The notes beneath the pieces were generated by a model. That model made no database searches, had not been told where the DNA came from, and saw only the letters and a list, made by a program, of their open reading frames with translations. The position numbers and the translations under genes were made by a program. From an uncultured Dehalococcoidia bacterium (GTDB lineage Bacteria; Chloroflexota; Dehalococcoidia; SZUA-161), in NCBI GenBank assembly GCA_964574685.1, contig CAZNOI010000005.1:69875-133874 (forward strand): 64,000 nt of DNA, read 5' to 3'. The number at the start of each line of letters is the position of its first letter. The first letter of the stretch is position 1. Positions 14,531-35,499 of the stretch are shown here, one piece after another.

Positions 14531-15487
14531 CTATACGAGGTCTATTCGCATGAGGCCGTCGCGTGTCAGGGCCTTCTGGTAGAGCATCTTCGCCACAGCG
14601 ACGTCTTCGATAGCGAGGCCGGTCGAGTCGAATACGGTCACTGCATCCGGCCTGTCCCTCGGGGCCTTTCTGCCCGATACGATCTCTGAGAGAGTGGCGG
14701 CTATGCCATCACGTGAGAAAGCGCCGGCGCTTACCGGCACATTGATTTCGCCGCTGTGACAGGCCTGGGCCGCATCATCGACCACCACGCGGGACCGGCC
14801 GAGTATCTGCGGGTCAAGCTCCTGCTTCCCTCTCGCATCTGCACCTACAGCGTTGATGTGTGTACCCGGCTTGATCCAGCCGGCCATGACAATCGGTTGC
14901 CGAGATGGCGTGAGGGTGCAAAGGATATCAGAGTCGGCGGCCTCCTCCGGAGAGGCAGGCACGATTTCCAGGCCGAGACGCTCCCGTGCCAGCCCTTCAA
15001 CGGCCTCGGGGCACGCGTCGTGGACCTTGACCAGTTCCAGATCGAAGACCAGCCTGTGTGATTCGATGTGCATCCGGGCCTGGCATCCAGCGCCGACGAG
15101 ACCGAGCACCCGTGAGTCGCTCCGGGCCAGATACCGGGACGCGAGAGCAGAGGTAGCAGCCGTGCGGTAGGAGGTGATCTCGGTGGCGTCCATTACGGCC
15201 AGAGGATAACCGGTGGCCGGGTCGCTGTAGATGAGGACCCCCATTACGGTACGCAGTCCGCTCCTGTGATTCTTTGGGTGAACATTGACCCACTTGATGC
15301 CCGCCGCGCCGGGCACTGCCGCCGGCATCGCCCTGAAGTCTCCGTCTTCGAGGGTAATGTACGTCTTGGGCTGCATCTGGTTCTTGCCCTCGGCTTGGTC
15401 ACGAAAGGCCTGCTCGATGGCTGAGAGCGCATCGGACATCGAGAGAAGCTCAGAGACCTCTCTCCTGGTCAAGATGATAGTGCTCAT
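14531..15487 (-). CDS. ornithine cyclodeaminase / mu-crystallin family protein
   Basis: 318 aa. It starts MSTIILTRREVSELLSMSDALSAIEQAF and has a Rossmann motif GLVGAGCQARMH. These are typical of the OCD/AlaDH(archaeal)/ketimine reductase family. Confidence 0.8.
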   Translation of the reverse strand: MSTIILTRREVSELLSMSDALSAIEQAFRDQAEGKNQMQPKTYITLEDGDFRAMPAAVPGAAGIKWVNVHPKNHRSGLRTVMGVLIYSDPATGYPLAVMDATEITSYRTAATSALASRYLARSDSRVLGLVGAGCQARMHIESHRLVFDLELVKVHDACPEAVEGLARERLGLEIVPASPEEAADSDILCTLTPSRQPIVMAGWIKPGTHINAVGADARGKQELDPQILGRSRVVVDDAAQACHSGEINVPVSAGAFSRDGIAATLSEIVSGRKAPRDRPDAVTVFDSTGLAIEDVAVAKMLYQKALTRDGLMRIDLV

Positions 15488-15667
15488 ATCCTCGTCCGGT
15501 TTATGCCGCCTCTATCACGGTACCACGCGGCTCGGGCCGGCTACAATGACCTTTTACGGTGGTTGGCGGCAGTCAGATGGTACCGGAGGGGTCGCGCCCC
15601 GAGTGGCGGGACGGACGACTTCGTGACAGAGGATGGTCTTCTGGACAGTGTTGAGAAAGGGGGCGCC

Positions 15668-17515
15668 TCAGAGGTAGCCCAGGATCATGAGTTCGATGGT
15701 TGTCACGTCTCCCATGTTGACGGAGCCGTCCTGATTGGCGTCAGCTCCGCAGGTGATGTCCTGGAAACCGAGTATCATGAGCTCGACGCTGGTGACGTCC
15801 TGCATGTTGACGTTTCCATCGGCGTTCGCATCGCCGGGGGCCGTGGTCACGAAGACCATATCGTCGCCGTATGCAGTACCGTCCCCGGTTGCCGTGGCCC
15901 TGAAGTGATAAATCGTGCCCGGCTGGAGCCCGGTCAGTGAGCTGCAGAATGGTCCCGTCGAAGCCATGCACTCGGAGGCCGTCTCGTTGTTGTAGGTGTC
16001 CCCATGGCTGGTGAAGTAGTCATCGGTCGCCCACTCAAAGGCGACGTCCGTCGATGAGGCGGTACCCATGTCTCCAAGGTTGCCGTTGAGCATACAGCAG
16101 TCGCAGGCAATATCGGTTGCGGCGCTGGTATCGACGTCCGGAGGCACGAGCGGCATCCACGATACAGCGGCCGGCGCGTTCAGGAGACCCCACCCGAATT
16201 CGTTGTCCCTTCCCGCAGCGCCGAGGTCTGTCGCCGTTGACTCCAGGGCCTCTCGAATCATGTCAGGAGTCCAGGTGGGGTGTTCCGCCAGGATCAGCGC
16301 CGCCGCGCCCGCTACATGCGGCGAGGCCATCGATGTCCCCTGAACGAACCAGTACCCGAAGTCGGTAGGGTCCATCGTGGTGGGATTAAAGGTCTGCTGC
16401 AGGACACCATCCCCGTACCCGTCCCCGTTCTGATCGACGCTGACATTGCCGCCGGGGGCCACGATGTCTATGTACGACCCCGTATTCGAGTAGTAGGCCC
16501 GCGTCTGGTCGTACTGCGTAGCCCCGACAGCGATGCTGTAGACGTCATATGCCGCCGGGTACTGAGGAGCATTGCCCTCCTGGTACGCGTTACCTGCTGA
16601 GCATATGACCGTGACGCCGTTGTTGTACGCATAGGCCACCGCGTCCTCGAGTGTCTGGCTGGTACCGGGACCGCCGAGGCTCATGTTGATCACGTCCGCG
16701 CCGTTGTCGACCGCATAGTATATGCCGTCGGCCACCTGCTGGTCGGTCCCGCCGCTCGGCCCGAGCACCTTCACCGGCATGACAGTAACATTGAACGCTG
16801 TACCGGCAACGCCCGTGCCGTTGTTCGTCGTCTGGGCCACGGTACCGCACACGTGGGTGCCGTGGAACACATCATCATTGGGATGCGAGTCGCTGTTCAC
16901 GAAGTCATAGCCTGACGCGAAGCTGGTACCGGCAAGGTCAGGGGCCTGCAAATACGTCTCTCCGGGCGCCGGGCTGTAGTCCTCGTACGCTATGCCGGTG
17001 TCGAGGATCGCGACTACGACTGAGGGGTCGCCACCGTAGTCAGGGGAGGAGGCATCCATGTCCCAGGCGTCTTCCATGGCTATCTGGTCGAAATGCCATT
17101 GCAGCGGATACAGGGGATCGTCGGGACTCCAGAAGGCCTGACGAATGCGATTGGGCTCCGCGTACCGCACGATGGGCAACTCGGATAGCCTCTCGACCGT
17201 AGACTGAACGTCCACTGTGTCCGGGATGCTGAGCACCTCGAAAGCGGCGTGGGGGCTGACATAGGAGGTGTGCAGACTGAGCCTGTCCTTGGCTGATTCT
17301 ATAGCGGAGTCGACGACGCCGCGTTTGAATTTGACTATCAGTTGGCCCGGAACATAGCGCTCTGCAGGGGAGGAAGGCGAGTCGGCTACCCCAATCCTGA
17401 GGTCATCCGGGGCTTCGGCTTCGACCGGGGGCTGAGCGAGGGCTACGAACAGTGAGAGCGCGAGCAGCAGCGCTATCGCTGCAACTATCACGGGCCTCAG
17501 TTGTGCTGCTGACAT
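15668..17515 (-). CDS. secreted subtilisin-like protease (S8) with a C-terminal type-I dockerin
   Basis: 615 aa. Signal peptide MSAAQLRPVIVAAIALLLALSLFVALA. S8 motifs are HGTHVCGTV and GTSMASPHVAGAAALI. The last 59 aa carry two Ca-binding dockerin repeats, GDANADGNVNMQDVTSVELMILG and GADANQDGSVNMGDVTTIELMILG. Confidence 0.85.
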   Translation of the reverse strand: MSAAQLRPVIVAAIALLLALSLFVALAQPPVEAEAPDDLRIGVADSPSSPAERYVPGQLIVKFKRGVVDSAIESAKDRLSLHTSYVSPHAAFEVLSIPDTVDVQSTVERLSELPIVRYAEPNRIRQAFWSPDDPLYPLQWHFDQIAMEDAWDMDASSPDYGGDPSVVVAILDTGIAYEDYSPAPGETYLQAPDLAGTSFASGYDFVNSDSHPNDDVFHGTHVCGTVAQTTNNGTGVAGTAFNVTVMPVKVLGPSGGTDQQVADGIYYAVDNGADVINMSLGGPGTSQTLEDAVAYAYNNGVTVICSAGNAYQEGNAPQYPAAYDVYSIAVGATQYDQTRAYYSNTGSYIDIVAPGGNVSVDQNGDGYGDGVLQQTFNPTTMDPTDFGYWFVQGTSMASPHVAGAAALILAEHPTWTPDMIREALESTATDLGAAGRDNEFGWGLLNAPAAVSWMPLVPPDVDTSAATDIACDCCMLNGNLGDMGTASSTDVAFEWATDDYFTSHGDTYNNETASECMASTGPFCSSLTGLQPGTIYHFRATATGDGTAYGDDMVFVTTAPGDANADGNVNMQDVTSVELMILGFQDITCGADANQDGSVNMGDVTTIELMILGYL

Positions 17516-17649
17516 CCGGCTGCCTCCTGTCTATCCGGTTCCGGGCTCGTGGGCGGTGCAGGACTCGGTAGTCGCACGGCCAATGGTCGTCCGCGATTCT
17601 AGCAGGACGGCGCCAGGGTGTCAAAGCGTGTCGTTGGGTAGGCCTGGCG

Positions 17650-18480
17650 TTAGAACCGTCTTTCGGTGCCCTTGAAGAACACGCCGAGGTGTGCTCTCTC
17701 CAGGACCGGGTCTTCTGCCAGGCGGAGGGCCAGGGTTATATCTCTGGGATTGTGGACCCAGGGCTGCTCAGTCGACGAGTCCGGCAACGAAACAGGTTCT
17801 CCCTCGACCAGGTAGCTGGCGTTCTGCCTTATGGAATCGAGAAGCTCGGCGGTGTGGAACGTGGGACACGGCGTGAGAACGCTGATGAACGAGAAGCCTC
17901 TGTGGGAGATGGCCTCATTCAGCAGCCCTTCGAGGTGCGCTACATCTATCGAAAGCCCCTGGGCGATGAAGCTGGACTGGGTCGATGCGCTGTAGCTTAT
18001 CATATCCAGCATCGGGTCTACGGGCGGGTAGAAGTGCTCGTTGGGAAGAAGTTCCTTCTGTGTCTCGACATGTGGGGTCGTGGGACTCGTTTGGCCCTTC
18101 GTCATCGAGTACACGAAGTTGTTGACCATTACGCACGTGATATCCAGGTTCCGCCTGACCGCGTGCGGGAAATGGCCGGTGCCGATGCTGAAGAAGTCTC
18201 CGTCTCCGCCGATGACGACCACAGTCAGCTCAGGCCTTGCCAGCTTGGCCCCCTGCGCGACCACCACCGCGCGGCCGTGCAGAGTGTTGAATCCGTAGGT
18301 GTCTATGTAGGCGGGAATCCTCGATGAGCAACCGATGCCGGACACGATCAGTACCTTGTCCCTGGCAATGCCGAGACCCGGCAGCACCCGGCGTGTAAGC
18401 GCGTTGAGGAGGCCGAAGTTCCCGCAACCGGGGCACCAGATTGGTTTGACCTCAGTTCTGTATTCGTCTGTGCTTATCAT
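17650..18480 (-). CDS. 2-oxoacid:ferredoxin oxidoreductase, beta (TPP-binding) subunit
   Basis: 276 aa. The N-terminus PIWCPGCGNFG is the OFOR beta signature. It overlaps the alpha gene by 4 nt (ATGA). Confidence 0.85.
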   Translation of the reverse strand: MISTDEYRTEVKPIWCPGCGNFGLLNALTRRVLPGLGIARDKVLIVSGIGCSSRIPAYIDTYGFNTLHGRAVVVAQGAKLARPELTVVVIGGDGDFFSIGTGHFPHAVRRNLDITCVMVNNFVYSMTKGQTSPTTPHVETQKELLPNEHFYPPVDPMLDMISYSASTQSSFIAQGLSIDVAHLEGLLNEAISHRGFSFISVLTPCPTFHTAELLDSIRQNASYLVEGEPVSLPDSSTEQPWVHNPRDITLALRLAEDPVLERAHLGVFFKGTERRF

Positions 18481-20195
18481 CCCGCCAACTCCGATATGGG
18501 GTCGCTCAACTCCCGTATGCTGAAGGGTCGACCACCCACCCTGGCGAAGGACCGGGTGTCAGCAGGCAGGCCGATCTGGGAACGCAGCAGGTGGTAGTAT
18601 TGCCCCGTATGGTTCATCTCGATGATCAGTAGCTTCTCTGTCGACGCGACGAAGTCCCGGATTGCCTCGGGTATCGGATGGATGAGTTCCGGAACCGCGA
18701 TCCTGACCTCATCGAGCAGGTTGAGGCTTCGTGCCGTCTCCAGGACCACCTGCGCGCTGGAGCCCCACGTTAGAATGCCCTTCCGCGATTGCGAATTGCC
18801 CAGGACCGTCACGAGGGCCTTGTCTCGAACTAGAGAGGCCAGCTTGTCCCTCCTCTTGTCGTGCATGGTCTGGTTGGTCTGCAGATCGAAGGCCGGTCGA
18901 CCCCTCTCATCGTGCGACAGCCCGGATGTGCGGTACGCGAAACCCTCGTCTCCGGCGTCGGACATCGGCGAGATGCCGTCATCCGTCAGCTTGTATCTCC
19001 TGTAATCAGCAGCGTCATCGGGGTCGGGTTTCTTCCTGGTCCATATATCAGGTTCACTTTCAAGGAAATCTACTCCGGTGGCCACGAGGGTCTGCGCCAG
19101 CCACTGGTCCGAGAGCATGATCACCACAGTCTGATAGCGTTGCGCGATGTTGATGCTCGCTGCTGTGAGCCGATAACAGCCGTCGACATCATGGGGCGCG
19201 AGCACCACCCTCACGGAATCTCCGTGGCCGCCGTAGACCGCGTGATTGAGGTCCGACTGCTCGGTGCCGGACGGAATGCCGGTTGACGGGCCGCCGCGCT
19301 GGACATCTACAATGACCATCGGTGTCTCGGAGATGGTTGCCAGCCCCATCATCTCGGTCATCAGGTCCAGCCCCGGCCCGCTGGTGGCTGTGAAGGCCCT
19401 CGCTCCGGCCATCGAGGCGCCAATCGTCATTCCTGCGGCCGCTATTTCGTCCTCGGCCTGGACGAACACGCCTTCACCTTCCAGCAGGTCTCGGTATATC
19501 TCCTTCATGATCTCCGACGCCGGGGTGATCGGGTAGCCGAAAAATGCGTTGCCTCCGACTTTGACGGCCGCCTGTGCGACGGCAGCGTTGCCGTGCAGTA
19601 TCGGCCTGGGGCTTCGCTCGGCAGGCGGCGCCAGAGACAGGTCAGGCACGACAAACTGGGACAGGAGGTGCTCACCGGCTTCGATGGCCGGCAGGCTGTG
19701 CTTGAGCAGTACCAGCTCCTCGTCCTCGTCTATCGCCTTGCTGATTTCCTCGTCCGAGAGTCCCAGCAGCTTCACGAGGAACCCCAGAGCCACGAGGTTC
19801 TTGTCCCGAGTGGTCCCGGTGACACCCCGGCTGGCGTTCGTGAAGTCGACCCGAAGTGCATTACGAGGCAGCTCACCGGGCGGCTCCGACTGGCTGTCGT
19901 GGAGCACGAGGGTGTCGGGGCCAATCAACAGATCGTCCTTGACATCGACGTACGTCTCCCAGTTGAAGCAGACGAGGATGTCCACCCAGTCTCTGGGGAA
20001 CGCCGCGGACTCCGCATCGAGGCTCAGTTTCACCGCTGAGCCTCCACCACGTATCTGAGCCCCGTAGTAGCGGGGCATCTGGCCCGAGTAGCCCTGCAGC
20101 GCCGCCAGCTTCTGCAGGAAGCTGCCCATCACGACGACCCCATCGCCGCCGGCCCCGGATAACCCTATCGTGATATTCGTTCTCATAGTCGACAC
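18477..20195 (-). CDS. 2-oxoacid:ferredoxin oxidoreductase, fused gamma-alpha subunit
   Basis: 572 aa. The N-terminal gamma-like domain is ITIGLSGAGGDGVV. The alpha domain carries the GYPITPASEI motif. Confidence 0.85.
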   Translation of the reverse strand: MSTMRTNITIGLSGAGGDGVVVMGSFLQKLAALQGYSGQMPRYYGAQIRGGGSAVKLSLDAESAAFPRDWVDILVCFNWETYVDVKDDLLIGPDTLVLHDSQSEPPGELPRNALRVDFTNASRGVTGTTRDKNLVALGFLVKLLGLSDEEISKAIDEDEELVLLKHSLPAIEAGEHLLSQFVVPDLSLAPPAERSPRPILHGNAAVAQAAVKVGGNAFFGYPITPASEIMKEIYRDLLEGEGVFVQAEDEIAAAGMTIGASMAGARAFTATSGPGLDLMTEMMGLATISETPMVIVDVQRGGPSTGIPSGTEQSDLNHAVYGGHGDSVRVVLAPHDVDGCYRLTAASINIAQRYQTVVIMLSDQWLAQTLVATGVDFLESEPDIWTRKKPDPDDAADYRRYKLTDDGISPMSDAGDEGFAYRTSGLSHDERGRPAFDLQTNQTMHDKRRDKLASLVRDKALVTVLGNSQSRKGILTWGSSAQVVLETARSLNLLDEVRIAVPELIHPIPEAIRDFVASTEKLLIIEMNHTGQYYHLLRSQIGLPADTRSFARVGGRPFSIRELSDPISELAG

Positions 20196-22175
20196 TTACT
20201 GGTAAGCTGCGAGCTGTTTGGCCCAGTATACCTTGTCCTGGCTCTTCTGCAGGTTTTCCCTCGGGAAGTCTATGTTCTCCACGAAGTACTGATTGAAGTC
20301 CACGCGGGATGACAGCTCTATGTGCTCGATGAAGCCGGAGAGTTCGTTCGCGGTCCGCCAGTACTCCTTGGCCAGCAGCACCATGGACGCGCCCGTGCTT
20401 GCCGCGTTTCCGATCGAAGTTATGATCTCCGGATCGATCCCGCCGGGGATGAGACCGATGCGCACGGCGCTGTACGGGTTGACATAGTTGCCGAGAGCGC
20501 CCGCGAGGTACACGCGTCTTATGTCATGGGGTGTTATGCCCATTTCGTCAATCAGCGTCATGATTCCAGCGGCTATGGCGCCCTTCGCAAGCTGAAGCTC
20601 TCTGATATCCTTCTGCGTGAGTAACACGGGTCGCTGGTCGTAGGACTCATCGGGACTCGCGACCATGAAGTCATAGACCTGGTCATTGGGAATCAACCGT
20701 GGCTTGAGCCACGCGCCCTCCGTGCCTTCCGACGGGCGGAGGGTGCCTTCATAGTCGATCACGCCCAACTGCAGCAAGACCGCGATCATCTCGACAAGGC
20801 CGCTGCCGCATATTCCCTTCGGCCTGATGTTGCCGATGACGTGATAGAGCAGGGAGTTGTCCTCGAAGCTGACCGCCTCGATTGCACCGGCCCTGGCTAT
20901 CATACCGTGCGATATCCTTGCCCCCTCGAGAGCAGGCCCCGCAGCGGCCGAGCAGGTCATCAGTCTCCTTCGGTTGCCCAGGAAGACTTCTCCATTCGTG
21001 CCCAGGTCCAGCCCGAGTATGACTTCATCGTCCTGCTCCCAGACACCGGAGGCGAGTATCACACTTATCAGGTCTCCCCCTATGTAGCCGGCTTTCGTGG
21101 GCATCACGTACAGAAGACCTTCCGGATGGAGTTGCAGGTCGACGTCGGAGGCCTTCACGATCAGGCCGTCCGTAAGGACGGGCGAAAAGGGTGCCTCGGC
21201 GATGCCACTGGGGTCGAGACCCAGGAGAAGGTGCTGCATGGTCGTGTTGCCGGCGGCAACAGCTATGAAGATGTCGTCCGGCTTCAGTCCTGCGGCCCTG
21301 AGCAGGCGAGAGGTTATCTTGTTCAGGTCATTGGCAATCAGTCTGTGCATGGTGTCGAGGCCGTCTTCACGTTCCATAATGTACTGGAGGCGGCTGATCA
21401 AATTCGTGCCGTATTTGATCTGGCTGTTGAGGCCGGAGACCACGGCCTCCTCGCTTCCGTTGGAGAGATTGATGAGCTTGCCCACCACCGTGCTCGTGCC
21501 CAGGTCGAAGACGAGACCGTAGTAGCGGTCGACCTCTTCCCAGTTTTGCCAGTCCATCAGGAGGTCGCCGTGCAACACAGCGGCGCCACGGTACTGAGTC
21601 TGCCGAAGCTTCTCAGGCAGTGTGCGCAGGCTGTGGATCGAGGCCTTCAGGTCCCGATACTCGGGCACTAGGACGAGCTTGATCTTGTCGAGTTCCGATA
21701 TGCTCTCGTGTTGCAGGTAAGGCGGCAGCGTAATCAGTCTCTTCTGGACCAGTGGATCGGGATGCAGTATAGGCTGTACGCCGGTCTTGAGAATCTGGAA
21801 GTACTCTCCCTGGAAGCCGTTTTCGGCGGTGTTAATGACCAAATCCTTGTCAACCTTTGTCCGGCATGCCAGGCGGATTCCCCGCTCGAGTTCTTCGTCG
21901 TCGAGGAACTGCACTTCCTCTTCGGTCGGAGGACCTATCGAGGAAAGCACCTTTATCTTGCACTTGCCGCATTTGCCGATGCCTCCGCAGTCACCATTGA
22001 GGTCGACTTCGGTATCGTGGAGCGCTTCATAGACGGTCTCGCCCCTCCGCACCTTCAGCCAGAGGTCATCCGGCAGTACGTTCAGCCAGACATACTTCGT
22101 CCGCTGTTTGTCCGAGGCGGACGAAGCCACCGAGGGCTTTCTTCTGGCCAGCTTCTGGTTCTGCGCTCTTGTCAT
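20196..22175 (-). CDS. RACo-type reductive activator of corrinoid proteins ([2Fe-2S] ferredoxin fused to an ASKHA ATPase, DUF4445)
   Basis: 659 aa. The plant-type 2Fe-2S motif is CGGIGKCGKCKIKV...ACRT. A large ASKHA-like C-terminal domain follows. It sits immediately adjacent to the OFOR alpha gene. Confidence 0.8.
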   Translation of the reverse strand: MTRAQNQKLARRKPSVASSASDKQRTKYVWLNVLPDDLWLKVRRGETVYEALHDTEVDLNGDCGGIGKCGKCKIKVLSSIGPPTEEEVQFLDDEELERGIRLACRTKVDKDLVINTAENGFQGEYFQILKTGVQPILHPDPLVQKRLITLPPYLQHESISELDKIKLVLVPEYRDLKASIHSLRTLPEKLRQTQYRGAAVLHGDLLMDWQNWEEVDRYYGLVFDLGTSTVVGKLINLSNGSEEAVVSGLNSQIKYGTNLISRLQYIMEREDGLDTMHRLIANDLNKITSRLLRAAGLKPDDIFIAVAAGNTTMQHLLLGLDPSGIAEAPFSPVLTDGLIVKASDVDLQLHPEGLLYVMPTKAGYIGGDLISVILASGVWEQDDEVILGLDLGTNGEVFLGNRRRLMTCSAAAGPALEGARISHGMIARAGAIEAVSFEDNSLLYHVIGNIRPKGICGSGLVEMIAVLLQLGVIDYEGTLRPSEGTEGAWLKPRLIPNDQVYDFMVASPDESYDQRPVLLTQKDIRELQLAKGAIAAGIMTLIDEMGITPHDIRRVYLAGALGNYVNPYSAVRIGLIPGGIDPEIITSIGNAASTGASMVLLAKEYWRTANELSGFIEHIELSSRVDFNQYFVENIDFPRENLQKSQDKVYWAKQLAAYQ

Positions 22176-22786
22176 CTCTTGCCTATGAGTTCCATGAGTT
22201 CGGTTTCGAGGTGCGAGTAGTCGGCATCCCTGATCTCCAGGGAAAGGCCGAGGAAATCCGCCAGCCGTTGTGCCTGGGCCACGAGGTCGGGATCGTCGGG
22301 TTGCCTTACGTACAGAAGCTTCTGATAGTGCTCGAAGCAGTATTTGCGCATCTCCTCATCGTGCAGTTCCAGCGGCTTCGCGCAATACGACTCGAAATTG
22401 CGGATCAGGTCCTGTTCGAGGAAGTAGGTGCCCGCCGTCTCGTCAATCAGCTTCTTGAACTCGCCGCTGCCGAGGAGCATCTCGTAACAGTGAAACCCTG
22501 ATATTTTCTTCACGTCTTGCTTGTCGCAGAACTCCGAGATATCGGGAAAACACTCGCCGTAGAGGCAGACAACCCGTTCGCCGCGCTTCTTGGCAGCCGC
22601 GACTTCCTTGGACAGGAACCGCTTGAGCTTCAACGGTTTCACATGGAGGTTGGAGGGAAGATAGGTTGTGCGTAAGTTGGCCCGGGGGTTTCTGACCAGC
22701 AGGTAGTCCAGAGCGGGCCTGAATACAGAGCAGGCAATGATACGGGTGACCCGTTCCTGGTCGTTACCCCTTGTCCTGCTAGACAT
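22172..22786 (-). CDS. DUF1638 domain protein (commonly adjacent to MttB-family genes)
   Basis: 204 aa. It overlaps the RACo start by 4 nt. The Cys-containing segment is VVCLYGECFPDISEFCD. DUF1638 is a recalled family assignment, not a computed one. Confidence 0.6.
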   Translation of the reverse strand: MSSRTRGNDQERVTRIIACSVFRPALDYLLVRNPRANLRTTYLPSNLHVKPLKLKRFLSKEVAAAKKRGERVVCLYGECFPDISEFCDKQDVKKISGFHCYEMLLGSGEFKKLIDETAGTYFLEQDLIRNFESYCAKPLELHDEEMRKYCFEHYQKLLYVRQPDDPDLVAQAQRLADFLGLSLEIRDADYSHLETELMELIGKR

Positions 22787-24272
22787 TTCGTAGTCCCGGG
22801 AACGCCTGCTTGATTCTCCTGACGACTTCGGGGTCGATGCGCCCGTCTCTGCCGTCCAGCAGGGTCTGTTTTACGAACTGGTGAGCCCTGCTGAGCATGT
22901 CGGGCCGTCCTCTTTCCTCCCATACGTCGAAGTTGCACCGTACACTTAGTGAGGGGTAGAAGAATTCGTCGAACATGTGATCGATAGTGTGATCATGCGC
23001 CACGAAGTTGCCGCCCGGTCCCGCTTCCTCAATTACATCATACGCCAGGCTCTCCTCGTTGACCAGGATGCCCCGGAGTTCCCTCTTGACCATTCCAATC
23101 ATCTCATCGTCGATAACGAATTGCTCGTAGGATATGGAGTTGCCCGAATCCATAAGGCCGGCAGCCAGGTGAACGAGGTCAGCGCCGGCGGTCGCGACGG
23201 TCATGTTGGAGAACAGCTTCTCGAAACCTGCCTGTATGTCGGGACGCTTCGCCTCCGTCAGCCCGCCGGAAGCATAGATGGGCAGGTTGTAGAGCTTGGA
23301 GAGGCGAACGGCAGCGGCATTCATCATCGCCATCTCGACCGAGCCCATGGTGTACTCCATGGTTCTGAGGTCCATGGTCGCCGGGACAGCCCCGTAGAGC
23401 ACCTTCGCGCCGGGCGCTATGACCTGTGCTATCGCGACGCCGGCGAGGGCCTCGGCGTGCATTTGCGCGAGCGTTCCAGCGAGTGTTGCCGGCGCTGTCG
23501 CACCCGATATGGGGGCCGGAGCACAAGTAAGGGGTATGCCTCGATTGCCGAAGAAGTCGATAATCGCCAGGGCGTTGCCGTTCACGGTGAGCGGGCTGAC
23601 CACGTTGCTGATGATGGAAACAAAGGGCTTCTCGGCCAGTTCGTCCTCTCCACCCGCAACGATCTTGGCAATCTCCCAGACCAGACGGGCACCTTCGACG
23701 TCTTCACAGCCGCCCATTACATGCTTCGTGGTGTGCTGGAGCGCGCGGAAGAAGTCGTTGAGATGATAAGTGTCTACCTCCAGGTCGTGGGCCTGGCAGG
23801 CAATGATGTACATATCGAGGTTATCGAGATGGTCCACCAGTATGGCCGTGTTTGCAACATCCCTGAGCATCGTGCGCCGATATCCGCCTGTGCTCATGTC
23901 CAGGATGCGGAATACCCGGCCCCCGTTTGCGAAATGCACTATGCCTTCACCCAGGCGCACGTCATTCCTGCCGTCGCGGGAATGCAGGACGAACGTTGAG
24001 GGCGCACGGGACAGCATCTCATCCAGCCATTCCTGTGGGAAGCGGACCCTGTTGTTCGCCCGGTCCACGCGTGCGCCTGCGTCGGCAAGCCTGTCCACGT
24101 AGTGCTCGTCCGCAATCCTGACACCAACGTTCTGGAGAAGTCGGCGAGCCGTCTCGTCTATTCTCCGGAGGCCATCGGGCGCAAGAGGCTGATAGAGAGG
24201 GCAAGTGCCGTTCTCGTGCACTTCTCTAGCGGGCAGTGTCGAGGATTCCTTCAATTCCCTTGAGTACTTCAT
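22779..24272 (-). CDS. MttB-superfamily methyltransferase, non-pyrrolysine type (quaternary amine:corrinoid methyltransferase candidate), paralog 1
   Basis: 497 aa and uninterrupted, with no in-frame TAG. It matches the TIM-barrel MttB family (MtgB/MtcB/MtpB-like). Confidence 0.85.
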   Translation of the reverse strand: MKYSRELKESSTLPAREVHENGTCPLYQPLAPDGLRRIDETARRLLQNVGVRIADEHYVDRLADAGARVDRANNRVRFPQEWLDEMLSRAPSTFVLHSRDGRNDVRLGEGIVHFANGGRVFRILDMSTGGYRRTMLRDVANTAILVDHLDNLDMYIIACQAHDLEVDTYHLNDFFRALQHTTKHVMGGCEDVEGARLVWEIAKIVAGGEDELAEKPFVSIISNVVSPLTVNGNALAIIDFFGNRGIPLTCAPAPISGATAPATLAGTLAQMHAEALAGVAIAQVIAPGAKVLYGAVPATMDLRTMEYTMGSVEMAMMNAAAVRLSKLYNLPIYASGGLTEAKRPDIQAGFEKLFSNMTVATAGADLVHLAAGLMDSGNSISYEQFVIDDEMIGMVKRELRGILVNEESLAYDVIEEAGPGGNFVAHDHTIDHMFDEFFYPSLSVRCNFDVWEERGRPDMLSRAHQFVKQTLLDGRDGRIDPEVVRRIKQAFPGLRNV

Positions 24273-25677
24273 TTGACTTGGGTTCTACCTCGTGTTCCGC
24301 CAGGATCCTTCTGGCCTCGGCATTGCACCGCCTGTAGAGGTCCGGTGCGCCTGCCGCTTCCCAGGCATCGTGACGGGAGCGGTCTAGCAGAGTAGGGAGG
24401 AACTGCGCCTCCATGAAATGCTCGAATGTGTGGTCATCCATCAGGAAGATCGAGCCGGGTCCACCGCCTGACACCCTTCGAATGGCGTCGAGCGCCAGCG
24501 TGTCCTCAGTAACCGGGATTCCTCCCAGGAAGAAGCGGCTCATGGCCACGAGCTCGTTGTTCATGGTCACCATCTCCAGAGAGGAAGTGTTTCCGAACTC
24601 GAGATACCCGCCATCATGGACCAGATTGCAGCGGGACAGCATGGCCGTGATGATGGAGAACATGGCCTCGGCCCCGGCCTGCGCGTCCATGGTCTTGGAG
24701 TCGGTTGCACCGGCATATGCCCATACCGGGAGGCCGTACAGCTCGTCCCGCATGTCGGCCAGAGCCGACTGGGTCAGGCTCCATTCCGGGCACCCGTACG
24801 AGACTACAGTGGTCTTCATGTCGAGGACACTCACGTTCGGTCCGAACAGGAAGGGCGATCCCTTGCCGGCGAGTTGATGGAGGGTCAATCCCGCCAGGTT
24901 CTCGGCTATGCCGAGGGCCATCGCGCCGGCGAGGGTCACCGGCGCGCCTCCGCCGGCATTCGAGCCGGACGGCAGGCACATCGGTATGCCCTTCTCTGCG
25001 CAAAACAAGAGCCTCTCCATTACGTTCTGCGGGAAGCGGAGCGGGCTGATTGCCTCGGAGTAGTTGAGCAGAAAAGGCCTGTTCCTCAGTTCGTCTTCGC
25101 CGCCCGCGACGAGACTGGCTATCTGATGTATCTTGGCAAGGTCTCTGCCGCTGTCGGCAATGAAGACGAGCGGCTTGTTCGTGTTCTTGACCATCTCCGC
25201 GAATGCGTAGACGTAGATATCGTCTATAGGCGCGTCCTCGGGATTGCTCATAGACATGGCGAAGGAGATGTTGTCCAGGCCGTCGACCAGGCGGGCGAAG
25301 TTGGCCGTATCCTTTAGCAGCGTCCGGCGGCGCTTTCCGGTCTCCAGGTCGACTGTGAACGTTGTGTCGGAACCGGTGCCGTAGTAGGGCTTGCCATCGA
25401 CCAGCGACATGGCCTTGTTGCCCGTCTGGTCGTGGAGGCCGATCTCCCTGGGTGCCGAGCCAAGGGCCTGCTCTGCCATATAGGCCGGAAGTCGGACCCA
25501 GTCGCCATTGTAGACTCTGCCTCCGGCGCCCGAAAGCATCTCGAGACCTCGCGGATGCTCCATCTTGATCCCGGTCTTCTCCAGTATCTCGAGTGCCGCA
25601 GTATGGATCGCCAGCGCCTGCTCCCGGCTCAGCACCTTGAGCCTGGGTATGAAGGTAGGTATCTCTATTGGCTTCAA
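24226..25677 (-). CDS. MttB-superfamily methyltransferase, non-pyrrolysine type, paralog 2
   Basis: 483 aa. The N-terminus MKPIEIPTFIPRLKVLSREQALAIHTAALEILEKTGIKM is canonical for MttB. It overlaps paralog 1 by 47 nt. Confidence 0.85.
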   Translation of the reverse strand: MKPIEIPTFIPRLKVLSREQALAIHTAALEILEKTGIKMEHPRGLEMLSGAGGRVYNGDWVRLPAYMAEQALGSAPREIGLHDQTGNKAMSLVDGKPYYGTGSDTTFTVDLETGKRRRTLLKDTANFARLVDGLDNISFAMSMSNPEDAPIDDIYVYAFAEMVKNTNKPLVFIADSGRDLAKIHQIASLVAGGEDELRNRPFLLNYSEAISPLRFPQNVMERLLFCAEKGIPMCLPSGSNAGGGAPVTLAGAMALGIAENLAGLTLHQLAGKGSPFLFGPNVSVLDMKTTVVSYGCPEWSLTQSALADMRDELYGLPVWAYAGATDSKTMDAQAGAEAMFSIITAMLSRCNLVHDGGYLEFGNTSSLEMVTMNNELVAMSRFFLGGIPVTEDTLALDAIRRVSGGGPGSIFLMDDHTFEHFMEAQFLPTLLDRSRHDAWEAAGAPDLYRRCNAEARRILAEHEVEPKSNEVLKGIEGILDTAR

Positions 25678-25705
25678 TGTTCACCCCTTTCCATGGGGCA
25701 CCGAA

Positions 25706-26344
25706 TCACGATACGCCCAACAGCTCTTTCGCTTTGGCTACGGCTCCACCAGCGTCCGAAGCATATGCGTCAGCCTTTATCTGGCGCGCATAGTCATCGG
25801 TGACAGGCGCTCCGCCAATCATCACCTTCACCTTGCTTCTGACGCCCGCGTCGGTCAGGGCCTGTAACGTCTCGGGCATCGCCGGCATGGTTGTTGACAG
25901 GAGAGCGGACATTGCTACAATGTGTGGCTCGATCTCCTGCACCTTCTGCGCGAACTTCTCCGGCGGGACGTCGACGCCCAGGTCGGTAATCGTGAAACCC
26001 GCACCCTCCAGCATCATTGAGACAAGGTTCTTGCCGATGTCGTGCAGGTCGCCCTTGACAGTGCCTATGAGCACCTTGCCCTTGGTGGTGATTCCTCTTT
26101 CCTTGAACAACGGCTCCATGAGCCTCATGCATTCCTGCATTGTCTTGGCGGAACGAAGCATCTGGGGTACGAATATCACCCCCTTCGAGAACCTCTCGCC
26201 CACTTCATCCATAGCTGCGATGAGGCTGGTGTCTATTATCTCCTGTATCGGCGTTCCGTCATCGAGCGCCTTCTGGGTCTCTGCAACAGCGGTCTTGCTG
26301 TCGCCTTTGATCACTGATTCGGTAAGTGTCGCAAGATTGGCCAT
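25706..26344 (-). CDS. corrinoid (cobalamin-binding) protein of a methyltransferase system (MtbC/MttC/MtgC-like)
   Basis: 212 aa. The B12-binding DxHxxG motif is GDLHDIGKN. There is a helical cap domain and a Rossmann B12 domain. Confidence 0.85.
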   Translation of the reverse strand: MANLATLTESVIKGDSKTAVAETQKALDDGTPIQEIIDTSLIAAMDEVGERFSKGVIFVPQMLRSAKTMQECMRLMEPLFKERGITTKGKVLIGTVKGDLHDIGKNLVSMMLEGAGFTITDLGVDVPPEKFAQKVQEIEPHIVAMSALLSTTMPAMPETLQALTDAGVRSKVKVMIGGAPVTDDYARQIKADAYASDAGGAVAKAKELLGVS

Positions 26345-26413
26345 TTCGGACTCCTTCTCTCTTTCCGCGACGTCGAGCTGCTCCGGGTTGGCTCAAGACG
26401 CCCCGGATGCATT

Positions 26414-27211
26414 CTAACCTGACAGTCTGCCCTCCTGGTATGCATCAATGTAGTTTTCACAGAAGTCATCTCTGCCCAGGAGCATATCGATGGACAGCAT
26501 GGTTGACATGAGTTGTCTGTCGTTCGGGTCCAGGATCGCGGCCGATAGACCGTGGCACATCGCCAGGGCAAGGAAGTTGCGATTGACAAGGCGCCTCTCG
26601 GGCAGGCCGAAGGAGATGTTGGAGAGGCCGCAGATGGTATTGACTCCGGGGAAATCATCCATGATCTTCCTTATCGCCCCGAGCACGGCTGCCCCCATGT
26701 TCGTGTCCACCGAGACGGGTTGGACCAGCGGGTCGACGAATATCCTCTCGATGGGGACACCCGCGCCGGTCAGTCGGCTTATGAGTTCCGTTCCCACGGT
26801 CACGCGGTCCTCGACAGTGGTGGGCATCGATGTCTCAGCCATACAGAGCGCCACAACATGGCAAGGTTGCGACGTTACGACAGGAAAGAGAGCCTCGAAC
26901 CGGTCGCGCTCCAGAGATATAGAGTTGATCATTGGGGTGCCCTTGTGCAGTTTCATGGCCTCCGCTATCGCCGCTGGGTTCGGGCTGTCGAGGCAGAGAG
27001 GCAAGTCGATCTCCTTCTGGACAGTCTCGACGAGCCAGCACAGCTTCGCTGTCTCCTGATCGAGGAATGTACCGGCGTTGACGTCTACGAAGTCGGCGCC
27101 CGCTTCGGCCTGCTCGCGGGCCACCTTCACGATGAAGCCTGCGTCCGCCTTGGTTGCAGCCTCGTGGATGCTCTTCCGGCTGGTGTTGATCTTCTCGCCT
27201 ACTACGATCAT
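26414..27211 (-). CDS. methylcorrinoid:tetrahydrofolate methyltransferase (pterin-binding domain; MtrH/AcsE/MtgA-like)
   Basis: 265 aa. It starts MIVVGEKINTS and continues FVDVNAG...CLDSPNP...INSISLE. This is the pterin-binding DHPS-like TIM barrel. Confidence 0.8.
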   Translation of the reverse strand: MIVVGEKINTSRKSIHEAATKADAGFIVKVAREQAEAGADFVDVNAGTFLDQETAKLCWLVETVQKEIDLPLCLDSPNPAAIAEAMKLHKGTPMINSISLERDRFEALFPVVTSQPCHVVALCMAETSMPTTVEDRVTVGTELISRLTGAGVPIERIFVDPLVQPVSVDTNMGAAVLGAIRKIMDDFPGVNTICGLSNISFGLPERRLVNRNFLALAMCHGLSAAILDPNDRQLMSTMLSIDMLLGRDDFCENYIDAYQEGRLSG

Positions 27212-27428
27212 TCTCAGAGCCTCTCCAATGTATCCTCACCAATTATGTCGAGGCCAATAGTAGAGCACTACCTGTACTCCGTCAATGCCTTTTGCTGCAA
27301 AGTATGCTTTACCGCGACTTACCTAACAACCCCGCGTATGTACTACGTTTTGCTGGTACTTTCATCCCAGCGGATCGCCGGTGTCGTAGCTGAGTACCCC
27401 AAGCTGTGCCGTGTCAGTCCATAGCTGC

Positions 27429-27434
27429 TATAAT
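27429..27434 (+). promoter_or_regulatory. TATAAT -10-like hexamer in an AT-rich divergent intergenic region upstream of hypF
   Basis: GCTGCTATAATGG lies 55 nt upstream of the hypF ATG. The region is locally AT-rich. No convincing -35 was found. Confidence 0.25.
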
Positions 27435-27488
27435 GGAAAGGTGGAATGCTGACAGCCTGACTGCTGCCCGAACTGCAGAGGGGTACCG

Positions 27489-29825
27489 ATGACTGAGGGG
27501 ATTGATGCGGGACGCGGTCGCGTCTCAAGAGCGGTAGCCGAGGCCGGCGACGGCCTGCTGCGAGTAAGTGTGCGCGGCGTCGTTCAGGGGGTCGGCTTCA
27601 GGCCGTTCGTCTACCAGTTGGCCGGTGAGCACGGCCTCCGGGGATGGGTGTGCAACACCTCGGGTGACGTCAAGATCGAGGCGGAAGGAGCCCGGGAATC
27701 GCTGCAGCGCTTCCTTGAGGAGCTGACCAACAGGGCGCCGCCGATGGCACGGATAGAGGACGTTGCCTTCACCTGGGACTCGCCCTCGGGCTACACGTCA
27801 TTCGAGATTCGACAGAGTGTGGCCGAATCAGAGAAATACCAGCTCGTATCGCCGGATATCGCCACCTGTGATCAATGTCTGGCAGAGGTCCTGTCCCCGC
27901 AGGACAGGCGCTATCGCTATCCCTTCACTAACTGCACGAACTGCGGCCCTCGCTTCACGATAATCGAGGATATTCCCTACGACCGCCCCAAGACGACGAT
28001 GCGCGTCTTTACCATGTGTCCCGAGTGCCAACGTGAATACGAGGACCCGATGGACCGGCGCTTCCACGCTCAGCCGAACGCTTGTCCCGTGTGCGGACCG
28101 GAACTGAGCCTGCTTGACCCCGCAGGCCGACCGCTTCCCTGCGACGATACGCTGGCTGAGGCGGCGCGACTGCTGAGGAACGGCAACGTGCTGGCTGTCA
28201 AGGGGCTGGGAGGCTTCCTTCTGGCCTGCGACGCGACCAGCGAGACCGCAGTCCACACACTGAGAGAGCGCAAGAGGAGACCGCACAAACCCTTCGCCGT
28301 GATGCTGGCAGACCTGGACGAGGTCAGGCATCATTGCGAAGTATCTGAGCAGGAGGAAGAGCTTCTTCGTTCTCCGGCGAGTCCCATTGTCCTCCTCAGA
28401 TGGAGACATGGCTCGAACATCGCGAAGAGGGTAGCGCCCGGACTGGACTACATGGGAGTGATGATTCCGTACACGCCCATGCACCACCTGCTTCTTCGAG
28501 AGGCGCATTTGCCCCTGGTAATGACCAGCGGCAATCTGAGCGAGGAGCCTATAGCGAAGGATAACGACGAGGCGCTTGTCCGGCTTGGTGGAATCGCCGA
28601 CTGCTTCCTGGTGCACAATCGTGGCATTCACTCACGATATGACGACAGCGTCGCGCTGGTGGAGTTCGGGAAGGCGAGGGTGATTAGGCGGGCGCGAGGC
28701 TATGCTCCGTACCCGATCCATCTCCCTTTCTCGCTGAGACAAGTGCTCGCCTGCGGGCCTGAACTCAAGAACACTTTCTGTCTGATCAGAGACAATCATG
28801 CTTTCGTGAGCCAGCATATCGGGGACATGGAGAACCTCGAAACCATGAACCACTTCGAGAGCACGATTGAACTGTACAGGCAACTGTTCAGGATCGATCC
28901 CGAGATCGTGGCGTACGACATGCACCCCGAGTACCTGTCCACCAAGTATGCGCTGTCGCTGGCAGAAACAAGGAAGGACCTGGAGTTCGTGGCCGTCCAG
29001 CATCATCATGCCCACATCGTGAGCTGCATGGTGGAAAACGAGGTAAAGGAACCGGTAATCGGCGTTTCGTTCGACGGCACGGGTTACGGCACCGATGGCT
29101 GCATCTGGGGCGGCGAGTTCATGGTCGCCGATTTGAATGGTTTCCAGCGGCTGGGCCATTTCGAGTATGTACCCATGCCCGGAGGCGCGGTCTCGATCCA
29201 CCGCCCGTACCGCATGGCGGCAAGCTATGTGCTCACGTTGCTTGGGGGAGAGGCGTTGACCGCCGAGCTTCCGGCGTGCGCGGAAATGCAGGAGGGGGAA
29301 CTCGACATAATCCGCAGACAGCTTGCCAGCGGCATCAACTCACCCCTGACATCCAGCGCGGGCAGGCTATTTGACGCCGTGTCGGCGCTGATAGGTGTTC
29401 GCGGCGTGGCCGGCTACGATGCCCAGGCTGCCATTGAACTGGAGATGGTAGCGGCGGATGGGCAGTGGCCCTGCTACGACTACGTACTGGATGAACAGGA
29501 CGGCGTCTCGATCATGAGGCTGAGTGCTCTGTTCGCCGGGGTGCTCGGTGACCTTCGCGGCGGCGTGCCCCCGTCGGGGATATCGGCGAAGTTCCATGAG
29601 ACGATGGCGAGACTGATAGCGGACGTCTGCGACGGGATCAAGGCGAAGACAGGGATCTCCCGCGTGGCACTTAGCGGCGGTGTGTTCCAGAATCGGCTCT
29701 TGCTCAGGCTGGCAGTGTCTTCTCTGCAGAGCGCCGGTTTCGATGTCATAACGCATGAGAGAGTACCGACCAACGACGGCGGAGTTTCCCTGGGGCAGGC
29801 TGTTATCGCCGGCGTCGCTGGATGA
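27489..29825 (+). CDS. hypF: carbamoyltransferase HypF ([NiFe]-hydrogenase maturation)
   Basis: 778 aa. It has an acylphosphatase domain, two CxxC zinc fingers (NCTNCGPRF...CPECQREY), a YrdC domain and a Kae1-like domain. Confidence 0.9.
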   Translation: MTEGIDAGRGRVSRAVAEAGDGLLRVSVRGVVQGVGFRPFVYQLAGEHGLRGWVCNTSGDVKIEAEGARESLQRFLEELTNRAPPMARIEDVAFTWDSPSGYTSFEIRQSVAESEKYQLVSPDIATCDQCLAEVLSPQDRRYRYPFTNCTNCGPRFTIIEDIPYDRPKTTMRVFTMCPECQREYEDPMDRRFHAQPNACPVCGPELSLLDPAGRPLPCDDTLAEAARLLRNGNVLAVKGLGGFLLACDATSETAVHTLRERKRRPHKPFAVMLADLDEVRHHCEVSEQEEELLRSPASPIVLLRWRHGSNIAKRVAPGLDYMGVMIPYTPMHHLLLREAHLPLVMTSGNLSEEPIAKDNDEALVRLGGIADCFLVHNRGIHSRYDDSVALVEFGKARVIRRARGYAPYPIHLPFSLRQVLACGPELKNTFCLIRDNHAFVSQHIGDMENLETMNHFESTIELYRQLFRIDPEIVAYDMHPEYLSTKYALSLAETRKDLEFVAVQHHHAHIVSCMVENEVKEPVIGVSFDGTGYGTDGCIWGGEFMVADLNGFQRLGHFEYVPMPGGAVSIHRPYRMAASYVLTLLGGEALTAELPACAEMQEGELDIIRRQLASGINSPLTSSAGRLFDAVSALIGVRGVAGYDAQAAIELEMVAADGQWPCYDYVLDEQDGVSIMRLSALFAGVLGDLRGGVPPSGISAKFHETMARLIADVCDGIKAKTGISRVALSGGVFQNRLLLRLAVSSLQSAGFDVITHERVPTNDGGVSLGQAVIAGVAG

Positions 29826-29842
29826 ATTGAGGAGACTGAAGG

Positions 29843-30067
29843 ATGTGTCTGGCAATACCCGCACTTGTGAAATCGATAGAAGGCATGGAGGCGGACGTTG
29901 AGATTGGAGGAGTGAGCCGCAGGGCCAGTGTCATGCTCACGCCGGAAGTGAAGGTCGGCGACTACGTCCTGCTACATACCGGGTATGCCATAAGCGTGAT
30001 AGACGAAGAAGAGGCCCGGGAAACCCTCGACCTGCTATCGGAGATGGTGGAGGCCGCGGAAGACTGA
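29843..30067 (+). CDS. hypC: hydrogenase assembly chaperone HypC/HupF
   Basis: 74 aa. N-terminal MCLAIP signature. Confidence 0.85.
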   Translation: MCLAIPALVKSIEGMEADVEIGGVSRRASVMLTPEVKVGDYVLLHTGYAISVIDEEEARETLDLLSEMVEAAED

Positions 30068-30100
30068 TACGGCGCTGGAAGCCGGGCCCTCTATGCATTC

Positions 30101-32189: not shown

Positions 32190-32217
32190 TACGCGGCCCT
32201 CTGCGTCTGAAGGTGTA

Positions 32218-32475: not shown

Positions 32476-32484
32476 TCGGCTGCC

Positions 32485-33287: not shown

Positions 33288-33398
33288 CAGACCACTCTCG
33301 CCGTCGATTATACCTGAGGGATACCCCCCGGAACAACGCGTTAATCCGATGCTGGTTTCGAGGCGTACCCCCCGACTGAGCCAGTTATGATTGCTGCG

Positions 33399-35465: not shown

Positions 35466-35499
35466 GCTGGGGAAGCTACTCTCTAGGAGGTCGACGAAA

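Follow-up and report, generated by a model that had tools for sequence, protein, structure and literature searches.

A 64,000-nucleotide stretch from an uncultured Dehalococcoidia bacterium (contig CAZNOI010000005.1; the whole stretch is referred to below as the window) carries at positions 17650-27211 a cluster in which genes for a corrinoid-dependent methyltransferase system and its reductive activase are followed by the two genes of a 2-oxoacid:ferredoxin oxidoreductase (OFOR). An earlier note on this DNA had described the cluster as an eight-gene operon. The open reading frame (ORF) listing of the window confirmed the eight genes, as eight consecutive minus-strand ORFs fill the interval. 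Using Pfam and NCBIfam models with their curated cutoffs, all eight could be assigned putative roles by family membership, including the gene at 22172-22786, which the earlier note had counted without naming and which encodes a DUF1638 protein. In order of transcription, the genes are a methyl-tetrahydrofolate (methyl-THF):corrinoid methyltransferase, a corrinoid protein, MttB1, MttB2, DUF1638, RACo, an OFOR gamma-alpha fusion, and OFOR beta:

26414-27211, minus strand: methyl-THF:corrinoid methyltransferase (methyltransferase II, MT-II; MtxA/AcsE-like); Pfam Pterin_bind, 86 bits; NF005719, 329.7 bits (cutoff 259)
25706-26344, minus strand: corrinoid (B12-binding) protein; Pfam B12-binding_2 and B12-binding
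24226-25677, minus strand: MttB1, MttB-family methyltransferase; PF06253, 274.8 bits (cutoff 25); TIGR02369, 371 bits (cutoff 525)
22779-24272, minus strand: MttB2, MttB-family methyltransferase; PF06253, 375 bits (cutoff 25); TIGR02369, 413 bits (cutoff 525)
22172-22786, minus strand: DUF1638 protein; PF07796, 100 bits
20196-22175, minus strand: RACo-type ATP-dependent reductive activase; Fer2, RACo_linker, Raco_middle, and RACo_C_ter
18477-20186, minus strand: OFOR large subunit, gamma-alpha fusion; POR (gamma) then POR_N (alpha); TIGR03710, 484.9 bits (cutoff 482.75)
17650-18480, minus strand: OFOR beta subunit (thiamine pyrophosphate [TPP], single [4Fe-4S]); TPP_enzyme_C

The junctions between these genes, taken in the same order, measure +69, +28 (+70 with a later start), -47, -8, -4, +9 (or 0), and -4 nt. 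Such spacing, from -47 to +69 nt, is what one would expect of the single tightly packed unit described previously, and the eight genes are probably co-transcribed as one unit. Neither the region after OFOR beta nor that between RACo and OFOR contained an intrinsic terminator, and a search of positions 15000-30000 at E ≤ 1 returned neither a cobalamin riboswitch nor any other Rfam family. Two promoter-like sites flank the unit, both of which are candidates based upon consensus matches:

27257-27285, minus strand: promoter-like site TTGACG-17-TACTAT, a consensus match only, at 9 of 12 positions
17596-17624, minus strand: promoter-like site TTGACA-17-TAGAAT, matching 11 of 12 consensus positions, with an extended TG

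The first of these sits in a 277-nt region common to the operon and the divergent hypF gene, while the second falls between OFOR beta and a subtilase gene and likely marks the 3' limit of the unit.

To place this arrangement among its relatives, species-representative genomes were scanned with RACo and all eight window proteins were mapped onto the returned loci by tblastn. These loci are denoted by L-numbers, the window being L001. A six-gene core in the order MtxA, corrinoid protein, MttB1, MttB2, DUF1638, and RACo was found in ~20 Dehalococcoidia/Chloroflexota metagenome-assembled genomes, and seven further contexts anchored on MttB1 orthologs likewise contained the core. Overall, the core is present in >25 Dehalococcoidia/Chloroflexota loci. 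The MttB1-MttB2-DUF1638 part also recurs in two Desulfobacterales loci, one of which (L026) includes MtxA and the corrinoid protein as well and ends before RACo, while the other (L018) includes RACo, with no MtxA or corrinoid protein detected upstream. The exact window proteins are present on metagenome contigs, including Logan SRR7048218, and the nearest relatives carry the labels Dehalococcoidia or Chloroflexota. An OFOR pair directly follows RACo in L001, L002, L005, L006/L044, L007, L017, L050, L052, L062, and L082, which together represent at least six lineages, and the genes flanking the OFOR-bearing block vary between these loci. Because the same eight-gene order recurs on independent contigs with differing flanks, the arrangement goes beyond chance. 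Among loci in which the OFOR has just one possible start, its overlap with the end of RACo measures 4 nt (L006/L044), 11 nt (L050), or 7 nt (L052), and in the window the two genes are separated by a 9-nt spacer. The OFOR pair also occurs in other orientations, being convergent and tail to tail with RACo in L046 and divergent from MtxA in L051. L087 has a non-orthologous OFOR whose alpha, beta, and gamma subunits are encoded separately, in divergent orientation and 473 nt away from MtxA; the alpha subunit shares only 33-37% identity with the alpha part of the window protein and passes NF006412 (539 bits vs a cutoff of 411). Among samples anchored on RACo or MttB1, rather than on OFOR, five of 22 orthologous operons (~23%) have an OFOR behind RACo. 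This frequency does not support the earlier view of the OFOR as an integral part of the system. The position of an OFOR directly behind RACo is indeed as unusual as had been noted; no such arrangement appears in the literature searched. Thus, the OFOR pair is an accessory, appended behind RACo in some lineages, and its linkage to the operon is selected for, yet not obligatory.

The phylogeny of the linked genes was examined as well. In a neighbour-joining tree of OFORs (200 bootstraps), a clade with 100% bootstrap, in which the OFOR genes are preceded by GATase, class IV aminotransferase, and AP_endonuc_2 genes, contains none of the linked OFORs. The linked OFORs receive no support as a monophyletic group (bootstrap <25%, with their branching order unresolved). 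Most of the OFOR-linked operons form a group in the RACo tree, from which L002 is excluded and within which L008, lacking an OFOR, is nested. Queries with the RACo C-terminus and CBS tail detected no RACo remnants upstream of the OFORs on short contigs (L045, L047, L048, L065, and others).

Inspection of the OFOR itself supported the presence of a fused large subunit and a beta subunit, as noted earlier, although the order of the fused domains is the reverse of that reported (alpha/gamma), with gamma placed ahead of alpha. The large subunit has a YPITP motif at residue 218, while the beta subunit, whose start overlaps the alpha gene by 4 nt, has a GDG...NN TPP motif at residue 92 and Cys16/19/51/205 for one [4Fe-4S] cluster. 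No ferredoxin (Fer4)/delta domain was found by Pfam in the window OFOR. As a two-subunit OFOR, it just passes the cutoff of TIGR03710, whereas the beta subunit misses that of TIGR02177 (236 vs 261.9 bits). The closest solved structure is the 2-oxoglutarate:ferredoxin oxidoreductase (OGOR) of Magnetococcus marinus (6N2N_A, 315 bits for the large subunit; 6N2N_B, 194 bits for beta). All substrate-class models scored far below their cutoffs (2-oxoglutarate synthase alpha, 226.6/579; PorA, 56/550; IOR, 47/651).

The gene immediately upstream of the OFOR encodes a protein whose residues 35-641 align to RACo of C. hydrogenoformans (3ZYY, 314.5 bits) as a full-length match. It has the complete architecture of RACo and O-demethylase activating enzymes, consisting of an N-terminal [2Fe-2S] ferredoxin domain of the Fer2 type with four cysteines (Cys63/69/72/104), a linker, a middle domain, and a C-terminal ASKHA ATPase domain. 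It is distinct from methanogen RamA, scoring 142 bits with TIGR04270 against a cutoff of 500 and having Fer2, not Fer4. Based upon this architecture, it is predicted to perform the ATP-dependent reduction of Co(II) to Co(I) in its partner corrinoid protein. The electron donor to activases of this sort has been named just generically, as "ferredoxin or flavodoxin" (PMC6739815).

The DUF1638 gene immediately precedes RACo in all of the loci examined. Six cysteines (C19, C74, C79, C87, C100, and C135) are invariant across 43 orthologs, and the protein may bind a metal or an Fe-S cluster. A search with its AF2 model (pLDDT 88.6) returned no convincing fold relative in the PDB. In L086 (13199-15457), the N-terminus of RACo is joined in frame to DUF1638, yielding a single protein of 752 aa (DUF1638, Fer2, linker, middle, and C-terminal domains), and this fusion provides Rosetta-stone evidence that the two proteins work together. 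Transposon fitness data from Phaeobacter showed that a split methionine synthase depends on both a DUF1638 protein and a RamA-like activase, and the two co-occur across Alphaproteobacteria (PMC5764234). Both were also induced in Ruegeria growing on N-osmolytes (PMC12478193). DUF1638 is thus a probable partner of RACo in corrinoid reactivation.

Several other features of RACo and its surroundings were encountered among the relatives. A DUF362 protein follows the DUF1638-RACo fusion in L086. Many RACo orthologs (L005, L007, L009, L011, L012, L017, L018, L050, L062, L083, L084, and L088) have a C-terminal extension of ~150 residues that is missing from the window RACo. Wherever a Pfam annotation is on record (L005, L083, L084, and L088), this extension is a CBS domain, which might couple reactivation to energy charge. 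In the complete genome CP070667.1, RACo is split into a 184-aa Fer2-only protein behind DUF1638 (L081:13527-14077) and a 512-aa ATPase part located ~1 Mb away and followed by an OFOR (L082:6357-7896), with both parts overlapping over RACo residues 131-178. We considered this split as evidence that the OFOR tracks RACo, but found it uninformative, as a single breakpoint inside RACo suffices to explain it. All that follows from it is that the OFOR need not be co-transcribed with the methyltransferase genes.

At the other end of the operon, the Pterin_bind methyltransferase scores above the NF005719 cutoff for methyl-THF:corrinoid methyltransferases. The corrinoid protein carries the DxHxxG motif expected of a cognate corrinoid protein (D99-L-H-D-I-G104), whereas its scores with MtgC/MtbC-type models (170-209 bits) are each below cutoff (e.g., TIGR02370, 189 vs 215). 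As previously proposed, the operon encodes just one protein of each kind, common to both MttBs.

Both MttB proteins are members of the MttB superfamily (PF06253) and both ORFs are unbroken, aligning end to end with TIGR02369, the model for the pyrrolysine-containing trimethylamine methyltransferase (Pyl-MttB). The start of MttB1 is probably the TTG at 25677, as the resulting N-terminus agrees with 482-aa orthologs. At the column occupied by pyrrolysine in 7XCL, MttB1 has Ala and MttB2 has Leu (Leu, Val, or Ile over MttB2 orthologs). Together with the uninterrupted ORFs, these residues uphold the view that both are non-pyrrolysine homologs. Neither qualifies as a strict trimethylamine (TMA) methyltransferase, as both lack an in-frame UAG and score below the TIGR02369 cutoff. 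One candidate pyrrolysine site was seen in L005 MttB1 and rejected, since the in-frame TAG (L005:4615-4617) stands at residue 285 in place of a conserved Trp (TGG to TAG), while the pyrrolysine column is 311; a nonsense mutation or a sequencing error is its probable origin. MttB1 and MttB2 were both present as previously described, though not as recent paralogs. Since they are only 31.6% identical to one another, they are, judging from their sequences, ancient and separate deep subfamilies. MttB1, MttB2, MtgB, and Pyl-MttB are mutually 30-33% identical. Thus, in a comparison that covered MtgB and Pyl-MttB, neither MttB clustered with a characterized enzyme, as each is about equally distant from both. 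MttB1 orthologs are 72-87% identical and MttB2 orthologs 58-78%, and the two are invariably paired across the orthologous loci examined. A total of 2,206 database proteins match MttB1 at E ≤ 1e-30, with the best-listed 120 being 75-87% identical, and all of these matches are annotated generically as "trimethylamine methyltransferase family protein".

Among solved structures, both MttBs are matched best by MtgB (2QNE/9YCE, 215-262 bits), for which mutagenesis and a ligand-bound structure have defined a substrate tetrad of Y97, R312, H348, and F356. Of these, R312 is the carboxylate-binding Arg and is kept in MtcB, MtpB, MthB, and MtyB (PMC13080624). We compared these active-site columns over about 20 orthologs each of MttB1 and MttB2:

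MtgB Y97 column: Ser in MttB1; Gly in MttB2
MtgB R312 column: Trp, invariant, in MttB1; Tyr in most MttB2, while L015 and L016 alone have Arg and L014 has Phe
MtgB F356 column: Gly in MttB1; Gly in MttB2 (Ala in a few orthologs)
MtgB H348 column: His within one residue in both MttBs (shifted by one), the alignment being ambiguous here

Y97, R312, and F356 are thus clearly replaced in both proteins, which speaks against the betaine substrates (glycine betaine, proline betaine, and carnitine) suggested by the earlier note. Judging by the R312 column, neither do they resemble the betaine-type enzymes MtcB, MtpB, MtyB, and MthB, as the equivalent Arg is gone from MttB1 and from most MttB2. MttB2 instead agrees with Pyl-MttB (Gly, Tyr, Gly) at the columns of Y97, R312, and F356, i.e. 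at three of the four. From their active-site residues, neither MttB appears to be a TMA or betaine enzyme of a known kind, and they would therefore indicate an unrecognized sink for methylated compounds in sediments.

No transporter gene hinting at the substrate was found near the operon in any locus examined. In two lineages, the operon is adjoined by DmsA/YnfE-family reductases without a Tat leader. A DmsA/YnfE-type molybdopterin S/N-oxide reductase is encoded immediately after RACo in L084 (L084:15488-19760), where a GltD-like NAD(P)H flavoprotein forms a fusion with its DmsB partner, and a DmsAB pair lies 2-3 kb past the OFOR in L005 (L005:14458-17213), L017, and L062. These neighbours could be a clue to the substrate (trimethylamine N-oxide [TMAO] or dimethyl sulfoxide [DMSO]) or to an electron sink, and they hint, but no more than hint, at non-carboxylated donors such as TMA derived from TMAO. 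The molybdenum enzyme of L084 was also considered as an analogous displacement of the OFOR. However, it is a DmsA-type S/N-oxide reductase and not a formate dehydrogenase, and it offers no support for a role in reductant supply. In three loci (L052:11442-17700, L008:11736-15499, and L082:11493-17707), a second, more distant methyltransferase cluster is convergent to the first and located a few kb past RACo/OFOR. Asparagine-synthase-like genes precede this second cluster, which encodes a corrinoid protein and a Pterin_bind protein together with MttB-like proteins (30-37% identical).

From this gene content, the operon might be envisioned to work as follows. MttB1 and MttB2 would each methylate the Co(I) of one common corrinoid protein from their methylated substrate(s), and the Pterin_bind enzyme would hand the methyl group to tetrahydrofolate. 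Whenever the corrinoid slipped to inactive Co(II), RACo would spend ATP to reduce it again, using one low-potential electron and probably with the assistance of DUF1638. The OFOR would oxidize a 2-oxoacid, possibly pyruvate originating from a nearby alanine-dehydrogenase-like enzyme, and its electrons would pass to the [2Fe-2S] domain of RACo, either directly or via a soluble ferredoxin. The operon would thus bring its own reductant supply. It should be noted that a member of the alanine-dehydrogenase-like family is found just beyond the subtilase gene that follows the OFOR:

14531-15487, minus strand: OCD/mu-crystallin protein, archaeal alanine dehydrogenase-like (OCD/AlaDH-like), a possible accessory; PF02423; TIGR02371, 371 bits (cutoff 409)

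Its orthologs, 54-69% identical, occur beside an OFOR or the operon in L006, L044, L047, L048, L083, and L023, representing at least four other lineages. The gene lies two genes past the OFOR in the window, L006, and L044. In L047/L048, it comes immediately after OFOR beta, with no RACo remnant found upstream of the OFOR, and in L083 and L023, both of which lack an OFOR, it is located upstream of the operon. Other amino acid-related neighbours include an amino-acid racemase gene after the OFOR in L005, L017, and L062 and a proline-racemase-family gene adjoining the three-subunit OFOR in L087.

We tentatively favor the interpretation that RACo receives low-potential electrons from the OFOR, as one that seems possible rather than established. 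The OFOR is without a ferredoxin domain and RACo has a four-Cys [2Fe-2S] domain of its own, which would suit an electron transfer between them. There is also a precedent in Thauera aromatica, in which the benzoyl-CoA cluster encodes KorAB, an enzyme that re-reduces the ferredoxin used by the ATP-dependent benzoyl-CoA reductase; its related strains have either KorAB or an alternative (PMC9973337). Because the presence of KorAB likewise varies between strains, the patchy distribution of the OFOR would be explained. Nonetheless, a number of observations weigh against reductant supply. Of the 22 orthologous operons, 17 (~77%) have no adjacent OFOR and have unrelated genes downstream, so it is dispensable. 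Reactivation takes only occasional electrons, for which a dedicated OFOR seems oversized, and the 3' end of an operon is the easiest place for genes to be appended, as illustrated by the DmsA-type reductase found there in L084. Moreover, the AlaDH-like gene occurs with an OFOR but no RACo (L047/L048) and with the operon but no OFOR (L083 and L023), a pattern better suited to a catabolic role, and close relatives of the OFOR adjoin aminotransferase or CoA-transferase genes. A more specific version, in which the OFOR reduces the RACo [2Fe-2S] cluster directly, DUF1638 is a third component of the chain, and MttB1 and MttB2 are new subfamilies acting on non-carboxylated donors, is unlikely to be correct in all of its parts. 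One possibility within it is that TMA is demethylated without pyrrolysine, as hinted by the neighbouring TMAO/DMSO-type reductases. Were this version true, a physiological electron source would for the first time be defined for a corrinoid activase of the RACo type.

The catabolic role just alluded to was the second of the two that the earlier note had proposed for the OFOR, the first being a reductant source for RACo; both are viable, and the sequence data did not separate them. According to this alternative, the main rival, an N-methylated amino or imino acid would be demethylated and converted by the AlaDH-like OCD enzyme, a racemase, or an aminotransferase to a 2-oxoacid, from which the OFOR would generate an acyl-CoA for ATP gain, with any ferredoxin reaching RACo being a by-product. 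We consider this rather improbable, even though the recurrence of the OCD/AlaDH-like gene in several arrangements (the window, L006, L044, L047/L048, L083, and L023), the racemase genes near the OFOR (L005, L017, and L062, with the proline-racemase-family gene of L087), and the position of the sister OFOR clade behind a class IV aminotransferase gene would all be consistent with it, and two methyltransferases could strip two methyl groups in sequence. Arguing to the contrary, neither MttB has the carboxylate-binding Arg that an enzyme for amino-acid betaines would be expected to contain, and most orthologous operons have neither an OFOR nor a dehydrogenase nearby. Furthermore, the MttB-family enzymes characterized to date take one methyl group from a quaternary amine, and complete anaerobic demethylation to a primary amine is, to our knowledge, unprecedented. 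The activities listed for these enzymes are single-step (PMC13080624). Reductant supply and catabolism are nonetheless compatible, because oxidizing a 2-oxoacid derived from an amino acid itself yields reduced ferredoxin. The OFOR may also have no specific link to the operon, in which case a general-purpose enzyme would merely adjoin it and be inherited in one related group of genomes. Its absence from most orthologous operons, the occurrence of OFORs of the window type in other genomic contexts, the bootstrap of <25% for monophyly of the linked OFORs, and the single breakpoint inside RACo that accounts for the OFOR staying with the 3' part of RACo in CP070667.1 are all in line with such an explanation. 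However, it is difficult to reconcile with a block that persists under changing flanks while its proteins are just 57-79% identical, with RACo/OFOR stop/start overlaps, with an adjacency kept in three orientations, and with a non-orthologous OFOR arriving independently beside the same operon (L087), and we regard it as doubtful. Least probable of all would be an anabolic or redox-balancing function, in which the OFOR runs in reverse as a 2-oxoacid synthase (e.g., pyruvate synthase) to assimilate C2 units from methyl-THF or to dispose of the reducing equivalents of methyl oxidation. The enzyme of 6N2N, its closest solved homolog, is a CO2-fixing OGOR of the reverse tricarboxylic acid (TCA) cycle, FolD and Fhs adjoin the operon in L014 and link it to C1-THF metabolism, and the operon of the window is neighboured by genes for a NiFe hydrogenase and its hyp maturation system. 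Conversely, the window contains no CODH/ACS genes (for carbon monoxide dehydrogenase and acetyl-CoA synthase) or other C1-THF genes, the sequence carries no sign of the direction of the OFOR, and the alanine-dehydrogenase-like neighbour indicates oxidation.

The core of the operon would place it in the known class of MttB-superfamily/corrinoid-protein/MT-II systems with RACo/DUF1638 reactivation. Like MtgBCA of Desulfitobacterium hafniense and the MtpB, MtcB, MtyB, and MthB systems of Eubacterium limosum, it combines a non-pyrrolysine MttB-superfamily methyltransferase I (MT-I), a corrinoid protein, a Pterin_bind MT-II, and a RamA/RACo-type activase. Unlike these systems, it pairs two deeply diverged MttBs and encodes DUF1638 and RACo internally, with an OFOR appended in some lineages. 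Its MttBs are ~32% identical to MtgB, with Y97, R312, and F356 replaced. They share a fold family with Methanosarcina Pyl-MttB (PDB 7XCL) and a full-length TIGR02369 alignment, but not its in-frame amber codon. The MtgBCD, RamA, and DUF1638 proteins of marine Alphaproteobacteria (Ruegeria and Phaeobacter) constitute the same set of modules, including the pterin-binding methyltransferase, but these organisms are aerobes, their genes are often dispersed, the system doubles as a methionine synthase, and no OFOR has been reported. Thauera KorAB is comparable in the role proposed here, that of an OFOR within a pathway cluster feeding an ATP-dependent electron activator. The window OFOR is likewise encoded within a pathway cluster, and KorAB is presumably of the same two-subunit type, a likeness by description rather than by sequence. 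The recipient here would be RACo with its own [2Fe-2S] domain, however, and there is no separate ferredoxin gene. Lastly, M. marinus OGOR (6N2N/6N2O) similarly consists of a gamma-alpha fused large subunit and a beta subunit with a single cluster, but it works in the reverse TCA cycle, whereas the window OFOR misses all 2-oxoglutarate equivalog cutoffs.

Relative to these systems, three features appear to be new, namely the invariable pairing of two undescribed MttB subfamilies with putatively non-betaine, non-pyrrolysine active sites, the recurrent attachment of OFORs of two architectures to the operon, and the DUF1638-RACo fusion. Our literature search found no description of paired MttB subfamilies, of OFOR attachment to such an operon, or of the fusion. 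Dehalococcoidia are among the most abundant bacteria of anoxic sediments, and the operon is extremely common in their metagenomes. The recurrent OFOR beside RACo is a concrete candidate for the long-unspecified physiological reductant of ATP-dependent corrinoid activases, and its attachment may be the first genomic clue to the power source of this B12-repair step. The fusion strengthens the case for DUF1638 as a true component of the repair machinery.

The remainder of the window contains several additional gene groups. Divergent from the operon, positions 27489-38409 (plus strand) carry hypF, hypD, and hypE and, after them, genes for a Pyr_redox_2/Fer4 protein and for the subunits, small and large, of a NiFe hydrogenase, with a HycI-type maturation protease on the minus strand amid this region (32811-33287). 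Synteny of the hyp genes extends only to L006/L044, the closest relatives. Two S8 subtilases are encoded on the minus strand at 15668-17515 and 5657-7906, the former of which is located just downstream of the OFOR and has a fervidolysin-like prodomain, a C-terminal dockerin, and its own near-consensus promoter-like site. Further away, at 51802-58019 (minus strand), a glycyl-radical enzyme of 818 aa (PFL-like and Gly_radical) adjoins two family III CoA-transferases and an acyl-CoA dehydrogenase in a gene layout like that of an X-succinate synthase/Bbs set. A 1,718-aa protein consisting of nearly all TPR repeats is encoded at 8318-13474 (plus strand), and two neighbouring PAC2-family (proteasome assembly chaperone-like) genes are located at 39318-41069 (minus strand).

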